A DNA stretch of 64,000 nucleotides from Acidilobaceae archaeon (lineage in GTDB: Archaea; Thermoproteota; Thermoprotei_A; Sulfolobales; Acidilobaceae), in assembly GCA_038824665.1 (NCBI GenBank), contig JAWBBK010000001.1, positions 128,001 to 192,000 of the forward strand, given 5' to 3'. The notes below the pieces were generated by a model, which saw only the letters and a list, made by a program, of their open reading frames with translations, made no database searches and was not told the DNA's origin. Shown here piece after piece: positions 14,405 to 20,425 of the stretch; positions within the stretch are counted from its first letter, which is position 1; each line of letters opens with the position of its first letter. The translations under genes and the position numbers were made by a program.

Positions 14405-14635
14405 ATGAAGCAAAAACAGAAGAAGCCAAAGGACCAGCTGTTCATTATTCTTATAATGTTAAAGGTAGCTTTGACGCTGGTTTTAGCGGTTGCAGGAACT
14501 CTCCTAGCTGTACTCGGCAGTGAGGTAAGGTCCTCAGTTTTGATCGTAGTTGGCTTTATCATCATCGCTTTTTCTCCTGTTCTATCATACGTGCTTATTC
14601 ACATGATTTTGGTCAAGAGGCTTTATGGTTTGTGA
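14405..14635 (+). CDS. Small membrane protein (2 TM)
   Basis: Basic N-terminus, two hydrophobic helices, GAGGT upstream. Confidence 0.6.
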   Translation: MKQKQKKPKDQLFIILIMLKVALTLVLAVAGTLLAVLGSEVRSSVLIVVGFIIIAFSPVLSYVLIHMILVKRLYGL

Positions 14636-14649
14636 GGAGAGAATAGACG

Positions 14650-14706
14650 GGACGCGGGGAGCGCGGCTCCAAAGCCCCGCATCCTGGGCCGCTAGACGAC
14701 CCGGCT
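14650..14706 (-). tRNA. Split tRNA-Gln(TTG) 5' half (exon 14706-14669) plus complementary trailer (14668-14650)
   Basis: Minus strand AGCCGGG TC GTCT AGCGGCCCA GGAT G CGGGG CT TTG G, then AGCCGCGCTCCCCGCGTCC; no T-arm follows; TTTTAA box at 14739-14734. Confidence 0.92.
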
Positions 14707-14796
14707 ACCGATTCTAGACCGCTTCTAGGACGCTTAAAAGCTTGAAGTTTAAAAGACGATCTAGAACACGAGAGCTGAAAAAGAGGTACATAGGTC

Positions 14797-15762
14797 TTGA
14801 AGAAAGTAGAGTTCGTGAGAAGAGTACAGCTTTTGGGTAAGTCTACCTATGCTGTGACCCTACCTAAAGAATGGGCTAGACTTCACGGACTTACGAGAGG
14901 CTCAAAGGTATTTATGGAGGTCATGTCTGACGGGAGTCTGAGGATTAAGCTCGCTCCGTTATTGCATGAGTATAGAGCCAGCAGATACATAAAGTTCTCT
15001 TCGAACGAAGAAGCAGACCAGGTATTCTTTGAGGTCGCTTCTGCTCTAATATCGGGTTACGACTTTGTGATCGTATCATTCAATGAACTAACGTCTAGCT
15101 ATATCAAAGCCTTTTGTGACAAACTGTCTCGTCTAGTTCCAGGACTTCAGGTCGAACAGGAAGGTTTTGAGGTTAAGATCTCAACTTTAGGAGAGAGGAG
15201 TTCAAGAACTCTCGAAACACGTGTATCGTTAGTTGTAAAGCTCTTAGCTGAGGCTTTGAAGTCTCCAGACAAGCTGTCCTTAGCTGTGCTGGCTTTTAGT
15301 GACTTCAGGAAGACAGTAATAGAGTATGAGCTTCACAAAAGGTCTAGCCTTATATCAGGCGTTCATGAACTTCCGCTCGTGAGTCTACGTAGCCTCTCCG
15401 TTATTCTTCATCAAATCAAAGACTTGACAGTTGCGTATAGAACTCTCAGGCTTGTTGCCGAAAGTCCCAAAACAGAAAGAAAGGCTTTGGATTCGATAGA
15501 AGTGGTTGGAAGTCTGCTAGCAGATCTCTTTTGGTCAATAATAAAGGTCTTCAATAACCCTTCTGAAGAAACGTACAGAGGAGTTCTGAGAGCGTACTCA
15601 AAATTGGTCAAAGAGATTGAGAAGTCGCGAGAGTTCTGTAGCGAAGAGATCAAAGCTCATCTCGAGAACATTCTCGTAGGTTTAGAGGATTTAATGCTAG
15701 AACTAGGAATTTATGTCTCAGTTTTAAAGATTGCGAGCGCTAGTTTTGAAGACACTTCTTAA
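14797..15762 (+). CDS. AbrB-domain/PhoU-like regulator
   Basis: N-terminal RRVQLLGKSTYAVTLPKEW..G is typical of archaeal AbrB-PhoU proteins; helical C-terminus. Confidence 0.75.
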   Translation: MKKVEFVRRVQLLGKSTYAVTLPKEWARLHGLTRGSKVFMEVMSDGSLRIKLAPLLHEYRASRYIKFSSNEEADQVFFEVASALISGYDFVIVSFNELTSSYIKAFCDKLSRLVPGLQVEQEGFEVKISTLGERSSRTLETRVSLVVKLLAEALKSPDKLSLAVLAFSDFRKTVIEYELHKRSSLISGVHELPLVSLRSLSVILHQIKDLTVAYRTLRLVAESPKTERKALDSIEVVGSLLADLFWSIIKVFNNPSEETYRGVLRAYSKLVKEIEKSREFCSEEIKAHLENILVGLEDLMLELGIYVSVLKIASASFEDTS

Positions 15763-15809
15763 TTTAATCACTTCTTAACTCAATGTTGGGGTCTTCAGAC
15801 TAACGATTT

Positions 15810-17201
15810 TCAATGAAAATCTACCACCTTTATTATGTCGGAATTCTCTAACCTTTCCGCCTTCAAGTATCTATACGATACCTCTCTGAGGTCTTGGTTA
15901 TTTCCATGGATCATTACGGTGTGGAGCCTTGCGTTCGCTTTAGAGAGAGCGCTTTTTACGACGTTTACATTGATTTTATCCTCTCCATCTGAGATCAAAA
16001 TGATATCGCTAACTCCTTTAGTTTCTCTACCTTTAACTATATCGTTGCAGGCGATAAGTACGGCTCTCATTATATCGGTACCGCCTCCGGCAGTTACTTT
16101 GGCCAAGCTGAGAAGAGCTCTGACCACCTCAGAGGCGTAAGGGTTGCTTTTCACTTTAGTCAGTTCGTAAGGAACGGAGTCAAAATATCTTGCGTAAAAA
16201 GCTCTAGACTCTCCAATAGCTCTTTTAAGTAGAGCTACAGCTACAGCTCGAGCCCAGTCTATCTTCTCTCCCACCATGCTTCCACTTTTATCTAACAGGA
16301 CATAGATGGGACCTCTCGATACCTCTTCATGTTTTGAGTACAAAAGCAGTCTCGATTCAGCAAACGCGATCATAAAGTACGTTGAAGGTAACGCTAGTTG
16401 AGAGTAGTGCAGTCTCTCGAGGTCGCTACCTATTTCTATTCCTTCAGCCCAACCTTTCCTAAATCTGATTTTCTTTCCCTTAACGCCGGGGATGTCCAGA
16501 CCTTCTATTCTCTCTAATATCTTAGCTATGTCCGTTAGTCTCGCTAATTTAAGCACCTCTTCTGCTGAATCTTCAAAGCTAAGAACGGATCCCGTACCGG
16601 CCAGTTTGGAGAGAAGTTCTGATTTAATCTTCTTGGCGGTTTCGGTATCTCTTAGAGCCTGGTCTAAAGCTTCGTTTAATACATCCTCCAGACTATCTAG
16701 AGCGTCTCCTTCTCCGTCGCTTTTCAAACCAGAGCGGTCTTTTGACGAATTTTTTTCGTCACTCTCATTTTCGCTTGAGTCTTTTCTTCCAAATCCTTTC
16801 TCGCTTAGAAAGTGAACGAGTTTATCAAGTATTGAGGCAGCGGCTACAGTACTGACTAGGCTGTCAGCAACAGTATAGACTCTTATACGGTGTAGTTTGG
16901 GATTTTTCAGCAATTGGGCAATTATGTTATATCTTTCTATATATTCATCATCATGTTCCTCATTCTCTTCACTTTCCTCTAACATTGGAATCGGTAGGTT
17001 AAGAACGTAAAAGAGGTCTGTAGCTAGCTCAGGTCTGAGGAGACCGCGTCCTTCAATAGCGTTCTCTTTGGGTGAGAGATCTCCACGAAGAGTGTTCCTG
17101 AGTTCAATAACTGTACGAATTACTCTCTCTCCTCTATACATCTTCAGCTCGTCTAGAACTCCTACACCCATTACAGTGCTTTTCTTAAACCTCAATGACA
17201 A
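15810..17201 (-). CDS. VWA domain protein (ViaA-like partner of MoxR ATPase)
   Basis: MIDAS DKSGS, GGGTD, ISDGED. Confidence 0.85.
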   Translation of the reverse strand: MSLRFKKSTVMGVGVLDELKMYRGERVIRTVIELRNTLRGDLSPKENAIEGRGLLRPELATDLFYVLNLPIPMLEESEENEEHDDEYIERYNIIAQLLKNPKLHRIRVYTVADSLVSTVAAASILDKLVHFLSEKGFGRKDSSENESDEKNSSKDRSGLKSDGEGDALDSLEDVLNEALDQALRDTETAKKIKSELLSKLAGTGSVLSFEDSAEEVLKLARLTDIAKILERIEGLDIPGVKGKKIRFRKGWAEGIEIGSDLERLHYSQLALPSTYFMIAFAESRLLLYSKHEEVSRGPIYVLLDKSGSMVGEKIDWARAVAVALLKRAIGESRAFYARYFDSVPYELTKVKSNPYASEVVRALLSLAKVTAGGGTDIMRAVLIACNDIVKGRETKGVSDIILISDGEDKINVNVVKSALSKANARLHTVMIHGNNQDLREVSYRYLKAERLENSDIIKVVDFH

Positions 17202-17205
17202 CCCC

Positions 17206-18441
17206 TTAGCTAAGTTTAGAGTTTATTACATCAAGCAATTCGTCTATGCTGTCTAAAATCTCGGAGTAAATCCTTCTAACCTCTTCATCCTCTTCGAAGT
17301 CTTTAACTAAGCTTACGACTCTGTTCCTTGCACTTCTCAGACTTCTGCTATAGTCTATGAGGCGAGGATCGAAGGGAGGTAGACTTCTGATCTTATTAGT
17401 AGCCAGCTTGACGTTAGCTTTGATCTCACTGAGTTCTCTTAAAACTCTATCCTTAGTCTTCAGTTCGTCCATGAGTATTACGGTTATCTTTTCGAAGTCT
17501 TCAATAGTTTTTGGCGCAACATATTTTATAACGATCAGGTCGTCAACAGAAGCGGAGATCCTTCCATTGATTACTGCGTGAGCGGCTATGACCTTCATGA
17601 GCTTTCCCTTTCTTCTATCCGTTAGATGTATGCTCTTTGATTCCAAGGCTAAGAGTAACTTGAGGATGTGATTTTTCACGTTCTCTAGATTTACTGAAAG
17701 CACAATCTTGTTGATGTTCTTTAAGTCCTCCATAGTCATGAGTGGTTTTGAGGTAGGTATGTCTCCACGCTCTATCTTCCAGCTGGCATCTAGAAGTCTA
17801 GACCAGAGTTCTTGGCTGAGAGGTTTTACATAAGTTCTTAATAAGAACCTATCGTAGAGCGCTTCTGTTTCAGGGTCTTCAGGCACTTTATTGGAGGCTC
17901 CAAAGAGACTCCAAAGCTTTGTCCTTATCTCCACATATCCATCGTATATTACACGTTCCATCATTAAACTCAACAAACAGTTCAGAACCGCGCTACTAGC
18001 GTTGAAGATCTCGTCGAGAAACGCTATCTCGGCTTCTGGTAGTTTGTCTTTAGTGATTCTAACATAAGAACCTTTTAGTAAAGCGTTTACATCAAGAGGT
18101 CCGAAGAGTTCGCTGGGCTCAGTATATTTGGTTAACAGGTACTTGAAGAACTTAGCGTTAAGAAGGTCTGAAGCTCTTCTAACCAAAGCGCTCTTAGCAG
18201 TGCCTGGTTCTCCTATCAAGACAGCGTGCTCTCCTGTGAGAAGCGCTAGAGTTATTAGCAGTACCTCTTCCTGTCTTCCTACAAAGGGAGCTTCGAGTTC
18301 GTTCATAAACTTCCGAATTTTAGCCAAAGCCGAATCAAGAGAACGGCTCATACCTTCAGAGTTCTGTTCCTCCTTAAGATGAGTGGGTTTCAGAGAGCGC
18401 TCTAGACTTTTGTAGGTTTCTGGCTGAAAAACAGACACCAA
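17206..18441 (-). CDS. MoxR-family AAA+ ATPase (RavA-like)
   Basis: GEPGTAKS, TEPSELFGP, FLDEIFNA, ASN..P, ALYDRF; true start probably at MSRSL. Confidence 0.88.
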   Translation of the reverse strand: MVSVFQPETYKSLERSLKPTHLKEEQNSEGMSRSLDSALAKIRKFMNELEAPFVGRQEEVLLITLALLTGEHAVLIGEPGTAKSALVRRASDLLNAKFFKYLLTKYTEPSELFGPLDVNALLKGSYVRITKDKLPEAEIAFLDEIFNASSAVLNCLLSLMMERVIYDGYVEIRTKLWSLFGASNKVPEDPETEALYDRFLLRTYVKPLSQELWSRLLDASWKIERGDIPTSKPLMTMEDLKNINKIVLSVNLENVKNHILKLLLALESKSIHLTDRRKGKLMKVIAAHAVINGRISASVDDLIVIKYVAPKTIEDFEKITVILMDELKTKDRVLRELSEIKANVKLATNKIRSLPPFDPRLIDYSRSLRSARNRVVSLVKDFEEDEEVRRIYSEILDSIDELLDVINSKLS

Positions 18442-18500
18442 CTCACCCCGAACTCTGCTGACTTAATTAAGGATAAACCCAAAGTAATTTAATTTAACTC

Positions 18501-19472
18501 TCAACTAGTCGTGGCGCGTTCTACAAAAGTCTCTACGATAAGAGCTGTCGTTAAAAGAAGCAGGGCCGACCTAGAGAAGTGTGCGTTCTCGCTTAGGATT
18601 TTCATGATTTCTTCGTTTCCTTCTTTTAAAGACTTAAGAATTCTTAGAGCATAGGGAATAGGAAGGAGGGTCAGTAGAGCTACAAGTGGACTCACTATCT
18701 CTTTTATCGTAGATAGCAACAAGGACAACACAAAAATCATCAGTACGAGAAAGTAGCCTATCCACACCTTTTCTTTGAGGAGAATTGGAAGAGTCCTTCT
18801 TCCATACTTGATGTCAACTTTGACATCAGCTAAATGGTTTATATAAAGCGTGATTGTTGAGAGAGCCCCATATGTTGCTCCTAAAAAGATTGCTGATGTG
18901 TGGAGTTCCTTAGTAGCTACGTAGGCACAACCGAGAAACACTAGAACACTCCTCATAAAGGCTCCGAACTCTCCTAGTCCAAGTCTAAGCAGATAGGGAT
19001 CATAGAGCAATATTATCAAGGCTCCAGCGATTACAAACAACAAGAGCACAAGACCGTAGAGAGCGCTAAGATATAGCCCTATAGAAAGGGCAACTATGAA
19101 GGTGAGTGTAGCTAAGACAAAGGCTTCAGTCAAAGAGATCTTCCCTTCAACTAAGATCTTTGTCCCTCCGCTAAAAGGAGTCTTTAAAGTCTCTCTGTCT
19201 AGTCCGCTTTTATAGTCCTGTATTTCGTTGAGAGCGTTTACGCTGAGGTGAGCGAGCGTGACTCCAATAACGGCCAAGATTGATTCAAAAATAATACACT
19301 CTTCTGTTGTTTTACAACCATAGAAAATACCTCCTAAGCCTGCCAGTATAGTGCTAAGAGAGGTCTCAGGTCGCAAAAATCTCCAGTAAACACCGAACTT
19401 TTCTTTCCAGATCGGAATCTTCAGAAAAGATAGAACGATATTGTTTAAACTCTTCTTAATAAGTGATGTCAT
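18501..19472 (-). CDS. UbiA/MenA-family prenyltransferase
   Basis: RPET, NALNEIQDYKSGLD, TPFSGG, NHLADVKVD..GRRTL, multiple TMs. Confidence 0.85.
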   Translation of the reverse strand: MTSLIKKSLNNIVLSFLKIPIWKEKFGVYWRFLRPETSLSTILAGLGGIFYGCKTTEECIIFESILAVIGVTLAHLSVNALNEIQDYKSGLDRETLKTPFSGGTKILVEGKISLTEAFVLATLTFIVALSIGLYLSALYGLVLLLFVIAGALIILLYDPYLLRLGLGEFGAFMRSVLVFLGCAYVATKELHTSAIFLGATYGALSTITLYINHLADVKVDIKYGRRTLPILLKEKVWIGYFLVLMIFVLSLLLSTIKEIVSPLVALLTLLPIPYALRILKSLKEGNEEIMKILSENAHFSRSALLLLTTALIVETFVERATTS

Positions 19473-19528
19473 TTGAGTCCCTTAAAGAACAAATAGTTCA
19501 AGCTTTTTAGTTTGGAGATTTATACACT

Positions 19529-20425
19529 CTAAGGACGCGGGGTAGCGGCGGAGAGCCCCCGTGACCGGGGTTCGAATCCCCGCCCGGCTACCAATACTTT
19601 ACAATAGCTTTCTTTCTCGAGATCACTCTCTCTAAGACCTCCACGAAAGTTTTTTGACAGATCCTTTTTTCCTATTACTATAAAACGCGAAGGCTCAGGA
19701 TATGTCCTTTCGAGAGCTTGTTCGATCACGTCTTCTCTAATGACCTCAACTAGCTGGTGTCTTGAAATTATGTGACCAAAACATATATCACTTTCCAACA
19801 TGGCTTTTGTATATCTCTTCGGATAGTGAGGTCCTCCGAAAGCCGTTGCAGACATGCAGTTAGGAAGACCTTCTTCTAATTTGTTTACGACGTTGCTTAC
19901 AGTAAGAGCCAGAGCGAGGATTGCTTTCATATCTCTCCATTGTTCCTCACAGCTACCTACCTCGATGAAGACTAGAGGCTTCTTTGATCCTGTGGGTCCG
20001 TGGTGAGTAGCTTCAAGAGTAACCTCATAAGTACTATCTAATTTGAGCTCTTGAGAAAGCTTGAAGTAGTAGAAAATAAGAGCTTTAGCTAGAGCAGGAT
20101 AAGAAACGCCTAGTTCGAACGGCTTTCCCCCATTTGTTAGACTTGTAGGGTTTCCAACGTGATGAACACTAAGCGTGCCTCTACACTCGCGAGAAGCGTG
20201 GCGAGAGAGCGCTATAAGAGGTCTTACTTCACTTCTAGGACTTACGTCAAGAATCTCTAAATCTAAGAGTTCTTGTTCGTAGCCGGCTATTAGTCCTCCC
20301 TCATAGCGATAACACTCTTTGGCTCCAGGACAGGTCGAAGGACTAGCTCTGAGATGTTCTACGAGCAGTTTTGAAGCTGAGACTCCTACAGGATCTTTTA
20401 CCGAATATACTATGTCTATCTCCAT
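19529..20425 (-). CDS. dtdA: D-aminoacyl-tRNA deacylase (archaeal DTD2); C-terminus probably frameshifted
   Basis: LSRHAS, SVHHVGNP, VTLEATHHGPT, FIEVGS, FGGPHY, GHII. Confidence 0.88.
   Translation of the reverse strand: MEIDIVYSVKDPVGVSASKLLVEHLRASPSTCPGAKECYRYEGGLIAGYEQELLDLEILDVSPRSEVRPLIALSRHASRECRGTLSVHHVGNPTSLTNGGKPFELGVSYPALAKALIFYYFKLSQELKLDSTYEVTLEATHHGPTGSKKPLVFIEVGSCEEQWRDMKAILALALTVSNVVNKLEEGLPNCMSATAFGGPHYPKRYTKAMLESDICFGHIISRHQLVEVIREDVIEQALERTYPEPSRFIVIGKKDLSKNFRGGLRESDLEKESYCKVLVAGRGFEPRSRGLSAATPRP
19533..19593 (+). tRNA. Split tRNA-Gln 3' half (exon 19556-19593) with complementary leader (19533-19555)
   Basis: Leader GGACGCGGGGTAGCGGCGGAGAG, then C CCCCG TGAC CGGGG TTCGAAT CCCCG CCCGGCT A CCA; acceptor and anticodon stems pair exactly with the 5' half at 14669-14706. 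Confidence 0.92.

Follow-up and report, generated by a model that had tools for sequence, protein, structure and literature searches.

How does an archaeon read CAA, its commoner glutamine codon, when standard tRNA finders report no gene for tRNA-Gln(UUG)? The question is raised by a stretch of 64,000 nucleotides (nt) from an Acidilobaceae archaeon (assembly GCA_038824665.1, contig JAWBBK010000001.1, positions 128,001 to 192,000; hereafter the window), in which a previous examination of the letters and their open reading frames (the sequence-only reading) had picked out the two halves of a tRNA-Gln(UUG) gene. The assembly holding the window (G000; the sister species is G001, relatives' genomes are numbered from G002 onward, and C denotes a contig) comprises 1.10 Mb in 10 contigs at 45% G+C, is 82.9% complete and has the window on its largest contig. 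Its open frames of at least 200 codons contain 2,583 CAA against 2,252 CAG codons, and by the wobble rules a tRNA with C at position 34 cannot read CAA. Standard annotation would report the organism unable to read CAA. The sole tRNA-Gln(UUG) gene detected in the assembly consists of two separate half-genes, and the evidence set out below makes it highly likely that the window encodes a functional, trans-spliced split tRNA-Gln(UUG) gene.

The 5' half lies on the minus strand. Its 38-nt exon (14706..14669) comprises tRNA positions 1-37 with one additional D-loop base and runs from the acceptor strand AGCCGGG through the D arm and the anticodon-stem strand CGGGG to C32 U33 U34 U35 G36 G37, its 3' terminus thus reading ...CUUUGG. 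A 19-nt trailer follows (14650..14668, minus strand), composed of an A, which is the third base of the 5' bulge described below, GCCGC and, after a short interval, CCCCGCGTCC; it pairs with the leader of the other half. In full the trailer reads A GCCGC GCT CCCCGCGTCC as DNA, or A GCCGC GCU CCCCGCGUCC in RNA letters, ending at 14650. On the plus strand, the 23-nt leader of the 3' half (19533..19555) reads GGACGCGGGG UA GCGGC GGAG AG, where GGACGCGGGG and GCGGC belong to an outer helix, GGAG to a central helix and AG to a bulge. The 3' exon itself (19556..19593, plus strand, 38 nt) starts at C38 and continues through the CCCCG anticodon strand, the variable loop, the T arm, the CCCGGCT acceptor strand and A73 to an encoded CCA. 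On re-reading, the positions and sequences first proposed for both halves proved correct to the base.

When the exons were joined by script, ARAGORN called the product tRNA-Gln(ttg), 76 nt long and with a standard cloverleaf, so that the full cloverleaf expected by the sequence-only reading is obtained with neither overlap nor gap between the halves. For comparison, the joined exons differ from the intact tRNA-Gln(CUG) gene of the same assembly (C3:13753-13828) at one of 76 positions, the wobble base. The halves are on opposite strands and transcribed divergently, with four protein genes in between, and for this reason neither cis splicing nor a single shared transcript is possible.

Joining in trans is provided for by the sequences that flank the exons. 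Trailer and leader form an outer helix of 5 base pairs (bp), GCCGC/GCGGC, and 10 bp, CCCCGCGTCC/GGACGCGGGG, and both of these helices, already noticed in the sequence-only reading, were recovered as a duplex of -35.0 kcal/mol. Not one of 19,996 random genomic 23-mers matched that value, and only 3 of 5,000 composition-matched shuffles of the leader attained it. Between the outer helix and the tRNA body lies a bulge-helix-bulge (BHB) junction at 37/38, in which 3-nt bulges, G36-G37-A and A-G-C38, surround a 4-bp central helix of CUUU (C32-U35) and GGAG; the anticodon stem CGGGG/CCCCG abuts the A-G-C38 bulge in cloverleaf register. The motif proposed beforehand is thus a canonical hBHBh' at 37/38 with every pair canonical, and the cloverleaf and hBHBh' together form a structure of canonical pairs only with an energy of -65.9 kcal/mol.

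The same arrangement is present in G001, the only congeneric species in the genome collection, for which a single 1.16-Mb scaffold is available (marker completeness 89%). Here the 3' half (around 565.37 kb) and the 5' half (around 573.48 kb) share one strand, with the 3' half first and 8 kb between them. Both exons are identical in the two species (38/38 and 38/38), while spacers and flanks have diverged and the genes flanking the halves show 66-81% DNA identity. The sister trailer, GCC-G-GCCCCGCGCCCCGC, and leader, GCGGGGCGCGGGGC-GGC, differ in sequence from those of the window and still form 14 + 3 bp; likewise the central helix is CUUU/AGGG there instead of CUUU/GGAG, with four of four pairs kept. 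Cognate trailer-leader duplexes have energies of -35.0 and -43.3 kcal/mol, as against -29.4 and -27.4 kcal/mol for the cross-species combinations. Pattern scans of metagenomes for leader plus 3' exon and for 5' exon plus trailer each returned 0 contigs.

Both halves escape the usual tools, as the sequence-only reading had foreseen. In the window, ARAGORN and Rfam (at its gathering threshold) report no tRNA at either, and over the whole assembly the 3' half gives just a partial Rfam match of 17.3 bits. In intron mode, ARAGORN produces a 'tRNA-Pro(agg)' with a 937-nt intron ending at 19593, a call that is spurious as its 5' part lies inside the coding region of a UbiA prenyltransferase gene. The search for an intact Gln(UUG) gene that had been proposed as a check, carried out with ARAGORN, Rfam and BLAST of the exons, found none in G000 or G001, and the only other strong match to either exon in the two genomes is the Gln(CUG) gene.

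A T/A box had been noted before each half, and boxes do exist at 14744-14733 and 19499-19510. They were scored with a 12-nt weight matrix trained on the 60-nt sequences preceding the 42 Rfam tRNAs of G000, whose consensus is AAACGTTTAAAG and whose modal distance to tRNA position 1 is 26-28 nt. The box of the 5' half, resembling a B recognition element (BRE) with TATA box (CAAGCTTTTAAG, 14733..14744, minus strand), ends 26 nt upstream of tRNA position 1 and scores 8.0, about the middle of the tRNA promoter set. That of the 3' half (CAAGCTTTTTAG, 19499..19510, plus strand) ends 22 nt upstream of the first leader base and scores 6.5, which places it 10th lowest against the 42 tRNA promoters; the scores are thus only moderate. 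Both boxes are conserved in the sister species, each 26 nt upstream, the 3'-half box there being AAGCTTTTAAA.

The enzymes required are encoded as well. G000 has two open frames with EndA domains, of 181 amino acids (89.2 bits) and 172 amino acids (34.8 bits), and an RtcB gene (601.5 bits). The EndA genes are at C3:86352-86597 and C1:127510-127737, and RtcB is at C1:430628-431932; judging from the number of paralogs, the two EndA proteins probably form an (alpha-beta)2 enzyme. The pathway that we envisage would start with two independent transcription units, giving a 5' precursor made up of exon and 19-nt trailer and a 3' precursor made up of the 23-nt leader and the exon with its CCA. Trailer and leader would anneal in trans through the GC-rich 5+10 bp helix, which together with the acceptor and anticodon stems would build a complex resembling a pre-tRNA, with the hBHBh' at 37/38. 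The heteromeric splicing endonuclease, composed of the two EndA paralogs, would then cut both bulges, at G36-G37^A and A-G^C38, and RtcB would ligate G37 to C38 to give the only tRNA able to read CAA. The anatomy, the conservation and co-variation in the sister species, the lack of an intact copy in the DNA searched, the enzyme genes and the ancestral locus treated below are direct observations; that both boxes drive transcription and that the precursors anneal, are cut and are ligated is what we infer from them.

A number of observations weigh against this interpretation and are best considered together. Equal or better promoter sites occur at any position in 5.5% (5' box) and 13% (3' box) of random 60-nt genomic windows and, with scores that are moderate as well, the boxes alone are modest evidence. 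Co-folding of the two precursors, suggested in the sequence-only reading, was borne out in part. The unconstrained minimum-free-energy (MFE) co-fold, at -77.7 kcal/mol compared with -58.8 +/- 3.8 for 300 shuffles, shows both the acceptor stem and the 10+5 bp helix. Its register is shifted, however, so that the anticodon region slides into a continuous helix in place of the BHB cloverleaf (-77.7 against -65.9 kcal/mol); energies by themselves therefore do not pick out the BHB. The co-variation of the trans helix rests on two species only. Given completeness values of 82.9% for G000 and 89% for G001, an intact copy could still lie in DNA that was not assembled, and no RNA run is listed among the public runs that hold the 5-kb stretch. 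The four DNA runs holding the locus, all of them hot-spring metagenomes, yield contigs that without exception break inside the exons, where depth is about 450-2000 compared with about 5-12 in the flanks; these breaks and the roughly 100-fold exon depth arise from exon sequences common to many members of the community. Of the contigs listed, those of one run alone (X1) bridge trailer and exon. Lastly, a contig from run X4 (depth 2.7, shorter side 36 letters) joins 14668 to 19550, leaving the exons 7 nt apart.

The alternative that best survives, though an improbable one, is that the halves are dead relics of a rearranged tRNA-Gln(UUG) gene and that a working gene resides in the unassembled part of the genome. 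The incompleteness of G000, in which ARAGORN left several expected tRNAs (Thr, Trp, a third CAT) unresolved, and the lack of a listed RNA run for the locus speak for this reading. Yet the same split is present in the single-scaffold sister genome, where no other Gln(UUG)-like exon occurs. Exons that are 100% identical between species whose flanking genes have drifted to 66-81%, a trans helix that changed in sequence yet stayed complementary, and conserved promoter boxes are likewise not expected of a relic.

Very little probability attaches to an artefact of assembly or binning, by which flanks would have been wrongly joined at the 38-nt exons of an ordinary intron-containing gene. Exons shared by many organisms could mislead an assembler in this way, and the X4 contig displays a near-contiguous form; we take it to be another organism's gene, perhaps a mini-intron Gln gene with a 7-nt insert, though it may also be a rare variant. 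Against an artefact, one 4,903-nt contig of X1, possibly the source sample, spans 14680-19582, with one end in the 5' exon and the other in the 3' exon, which places 4.8 kb of housekeeping genes ahead of the leader on one contig. Another X1 contig extends from 13800 into the 5' exon (14693), showing that the trailer runs on for at least 850 nt without meeting a 3' exon. Two further samples, X2 and X3, the latter from another study, provide contigs covering 14677-15803 and 14680-16926 as well as 19308-19579 and 19365-19573, and these reproduce the junctions from promoter to 5' exon and from upstream sequence through leader to 3' exon. The concern that 14650-19533 might be misassembled is countered by these contigs, and by the independently assembled sister genome, which has separated halves with mutually matching trailer and leader and a collinear 3'-half neighbourhood. 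Equally remote is the idea that the pieces are tRNA fragments with some other role (attachment-site duplicates or independent small RNAs), for although tRNA genes are often sites of integration and rearrangement (Chan et al. 2011), the 5' half sits at a synteny break and an orphan tRNA 3' fragment exists at C8:8182-8226, the pieces partition the tRNA exactly at 37/38 without overlap, where attachment-site duplicates repeat the same part of a tRNA, their flanks are mutually complementary and build a BHB, and their surroundings and the interval between them contain no integrase or other mobile gene. We conclude that the trans-spliced tRNA-Gln(UUG) is real and very probably functional.

What the gene was before it was split can be approached through its surroundings. 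Four genes separate the halves, encoding an AbrB/MazE-domain protein, a VWA protein, a MoxR ATPase and the UbiA prenyltransferase; after the 3' half come a D-aminoacyl-tRNA deacylase gene and then a NUDIX hydrolase gene. The order AbrB-VWA-MoxR-UbiA-3' half-deacylase-NUDIX is collinear in G000 and G001, while the 5' half is at a synteny break in both and its location differs between them. In G001, and at 5 of the 12 other UUG loci compared over about 3 kb, the deacylase gene likewise adjoins the Gln(UUG) gene or its 3' half. In the window, the deacylase open frame (19529-20425, minus strand) runs antisense through the entire 3' half and 27 nt of leader (19529-19593) until it meets a stop; its Pfam domain stops at residue 261 of 298, and the same overlap with the 3' half occurs in G001. 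On the other side of the locus, a 76-amino-acid hydrophobic open frame (orf76; 14405-14635, plus strand) runs towards the 5' half, stopping 15 nt short of the trailer. A homologue adjoins the 5' half of the sister species (44% identity, E = 6.5e-10), and its presence at the same position indicates that the open frame and the 5' half moved as one block. The possibility that orf76 is a homing-endonuclease remnant was considered and rejected, the product being hydrophobic and giving only E > 5 by blastp against intron endonucleases.

The tRNA-Gln exons were then compared in 41 genomes of the genus, family and order, and subsequently in all 67 species of the family. Relatives' exons are 88-100% identical to those in the window and mostly adjacent to each other. 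Wherever the sequence was inspected the gap between them is a 37/38 intron, and some genes are intron-free; family-wide, 5' and 3' matches were paired by coordinates, and gaps of about 140-180 nt in G076, G078 and G079 are known from coordinates alone. Introns of Gln(UUG) genes measure 14, 19, 20, 22, 29, 61, 155 or 711 nt and those of Gln(CUG) genes 19, 34, 34, 35 or 221 nt. In each of the 19 Gln genes analysed (15 contiguous or same-strand, 4 at separate loci) the central helix has four of four pairs and the 37/38 junction has bulges of 3 nt. Seventeen of the genes have GGA as 5' bulge and the other 2 GGC, while the 3' bulge is AGC in 14, AAC in 4 and ATC in 1. The central helix co-varies with the anticodon: CUUU is found with GGAG, GAAG, GAGG, AGGG or AAAG, and CUCU with GGGG or GGAG. 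In G029, a 19-nt intron has AGCC at its start and GCGGCGGAGAA at its end, like the start of the trailer and the end of the leader in the window. A peculiarity of two relatives from different genera, G017 (L019) and G011 (L021), is that their tRNA-Gln(UUG) carries C at position 33 (loop CCUUGG) rather than the near-universal U; the intron base opposite C33 is G in both, and the central helix stays paired.

A cis 37/38 intron in relatives, at a locus beside the deacylase gene, indicates that the gene was split late and within its intron. Most simply, a pre-existing cis intron broke and the 3' half stayed at the ancestral locus, and this favours a derived rather than an ancestral origin of the split. 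An ancestral Gln(UUG) gene, with its cis 37/38 intron and beside the deacylase gene, would have been broken inside the intron by genome rearrangement, the 5' half being relocated along with its promoter and the small convergent open frame, and the 3' half remaining.

Relatives of the window's organism appear to have split tRNA-Gln repeatedly, in at least three other families. Within the same family but in another genus, the Gln(UUG) halves of G071 are on contigs C59 and C97 (L150, L151), more than 30 kb apart. On C101 of G002 (L145), Gln(CUG) halves are 1.9 kb apart, with DeoC aldolase and PfkB kinase genes between them on the other strand. The closed genome of G032, from another family, has Gln(CUG) halves at about 932.8 kb and 665.7 kb of C1 (L157, L158), a separation of 267 kb; the joining helix is about 27 bp long, and another tRNA has its 3' end about 50 nt upstream of the 3' half's leader. 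In a third family, G040 carries Gln(CUG) halves at C44:520-557 and at about 61.0 kb of C1 (L162, L163), its congener G030 has the same 3' half, and the 3' halves of both are without encoded CCA. In G071, G002, G032 and G040 alike, the separated halves possess matching trailer and leader helices. A fourth family is represented by G034, a closed genome of 1.32 Mb, where a UUG 5' half, a CUG 5' half and a single Gln 3' half are found at about 963.1 kb, 102.1 kb and 1,009.0 kb of C1 (L159, L160, L161). The CT-rich trailers of both 5' halves are complementary to the leader of the one 3' half, which to judge by this pairing apparently serves both. Congeners of G071 and G002 have contiguous genes, so that the fissions are most simply regarded as independent. 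G077 had also been a candidate for a distant split and was rejected, since two of its contigs overlap by 99 nt and thereby reduce the separation to a 726-nt gap on one strand.

Some of the longer gaps hold a gene of their own. Those of 711, 726 and 745 nt in the Gln(UUG) genes of G006, G077 and G075, members of three genera, contain an antisense open frame with two LAGLIDADG motifs (G006:C7:1908-2495, L008; G077:C95:20887-21459 plus the end of C6; G075:C10:4706-5473, L154 1104-1874, minus strand). The G075 frame passes three Pfam homing-endonuclease cut-offs, while the matches in G006 and G077 contain in-frame stops. Of the 67 family genomes, a protein search picked out 3 with the endonuclease gene, always within the Gln(UUG) 37/38 intron and at about 54% amino acid identity, and found neither gene nor remnant in G000 or G001; tblastn of the three frames against G000 gave no match, and a PDB sequence search with the intron endonuclease returned 0 matches at E up to 0.01.

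A tentative reading of these findings, possible but to our minds doubtful, is that tRNA-Gln is a recurrent hot spot of fission across the order, driven by a mobile 37/38 intron that in some lineages carries an antisense LAGLIDADG gene. Intron expansion and breakage associated with the endonuclease would lead to adjacent, then distant halves, and finally to a shared 3' half, and the gene in the window would be one of at least five independent fissions. Whatever the driver, relatives display what resembles a graded series of most intermediate stages: no intron, an intron of 14-61 nt, one of 155-221 nt and one of about 0.7 kb with a homing-endonuclease gene, then two antisense genes between the halves, separations from kilobases to hundreds of kilobases, and one 3' half for two 5' halves. 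With such a series, the long-debated alternative of an ancestral or a derived origin for split tRNAs can be tested directly within a single clade.

Split tRNA genes as such are rare but known. Those of Nanoarchaeum equitans were reportedly described by Randau and co-workers in 2005, and the window's gene resembles them in having separate halves far apart (there sometimes on opposite strands), the same isoacceptor, Gln(UUG), a GC-rich trailer-leader helix with a BHB and, as a probable feature of the window, a heteromeric EndA. It differs from that nanoarchaeon, where the cut is at 32/33, in the cut at 37/38 and in a crenarchaeal host labelled Acidilobaceae, and a single split tRNA was detected in G000 compared with six in N. 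equitans. Caldivirga maquilingensis is said to have split and tri-split tRNAs (work attributed to Fujishima and colleagues, 2009). Trans-spliced halves, BHB motifs and a crenarchaeal EndA, the last probable for the window, are common to the two, whereas the order (Thermoproteales), the isotypes, some of the split positions and the three-piece genes set Caldivirga apart. The Desulfurococcales and Staphylothermus splits belong to the same order-level lineage and reportedly have a promoter for each half (putative in the window) and an hBHBh' at 37/38 (there in Asp). In Staphylothermus the halves are reportedly also at synteny breaks and a congener has the orthologous split with a diverged joining helix, features that in the window too point to a late origin. 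The Staphylothermus arrangement, so described, is nevertheless syntenic, unlike that of the window, where the isotype is Gln and the 5' half moved between congeners, and the relatives of the window's organism seem to have retained many stages intermediate in the history of the one intron. With the cis 37/38 tRNA-Gln introns of those relatives the split gene shares identical exons, bulges and central helix and homologous intron ends; it is distinguished from them, whose exons are on one transcript, by exons on opposite strands that must be joined in trans.

The gene order in G001, with the 3' half upstream on the same strand, recalls the permuted tRNA genes of Thermofilum pendens and Cyanidioschyzon merolae, but the parts of a permuted gene are adjacent, share one transcript and mature via a circular intermediate (Chan et al. 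2011), whereas the split halves have intervening genes and 4.8-8 kb between them and, in the window, lie on opposite strands. Table 1 of the same survey gives about a dozen trans-spliced tRNAs in six archaeal species, among them a split tRNA-Gln(UUG) of N. equitans cut at 32/33, and shows two tRNA-Glu species of N. equitans sharing one 3' half (Chan et al. 2011), a sharing of the kind apparent in G034. The suggestion that the window holds a new case of split Gln therefore stands for the lineage and the 37/38 site and not for the isotype. A full-text literature search, with subscription journals and supplements outside its reach, did not turn up any earlier description of a split tRNA-Gln in this lineage or of a homing-endonuclease gene in an archaeal tRNA intron. 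The novelty is a new lineage and a new combination of isoacceptor and site; the mechanism is already known.

A scan of G000 for T arms located 7 T-arm-like sites beyond the 42 Rfam tRNAs and revealed only the one split tRNA. Along with the Gln 3' half, they comprise a hairpin downstream of a coding region (C5:104294), three further sites judged to be chance matches, and two of independent interest. The first of these, C1:268031-268133 (plus strand), is a tRNA with a non-canonical intron that scores 21 bits in Rfam and is mis-called by ARAGORN. The second is the orphan tRNA 3' fragment already mentioned (C8:8182-8226, minus strand), which retains part of the anticodon arm, the T arm, the acceptor strand and CCA, and has no nearby 5' partner. 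It adjoins a short repeated stretch containing GTTTCAG and may be a remnant of integration or rearrangement.

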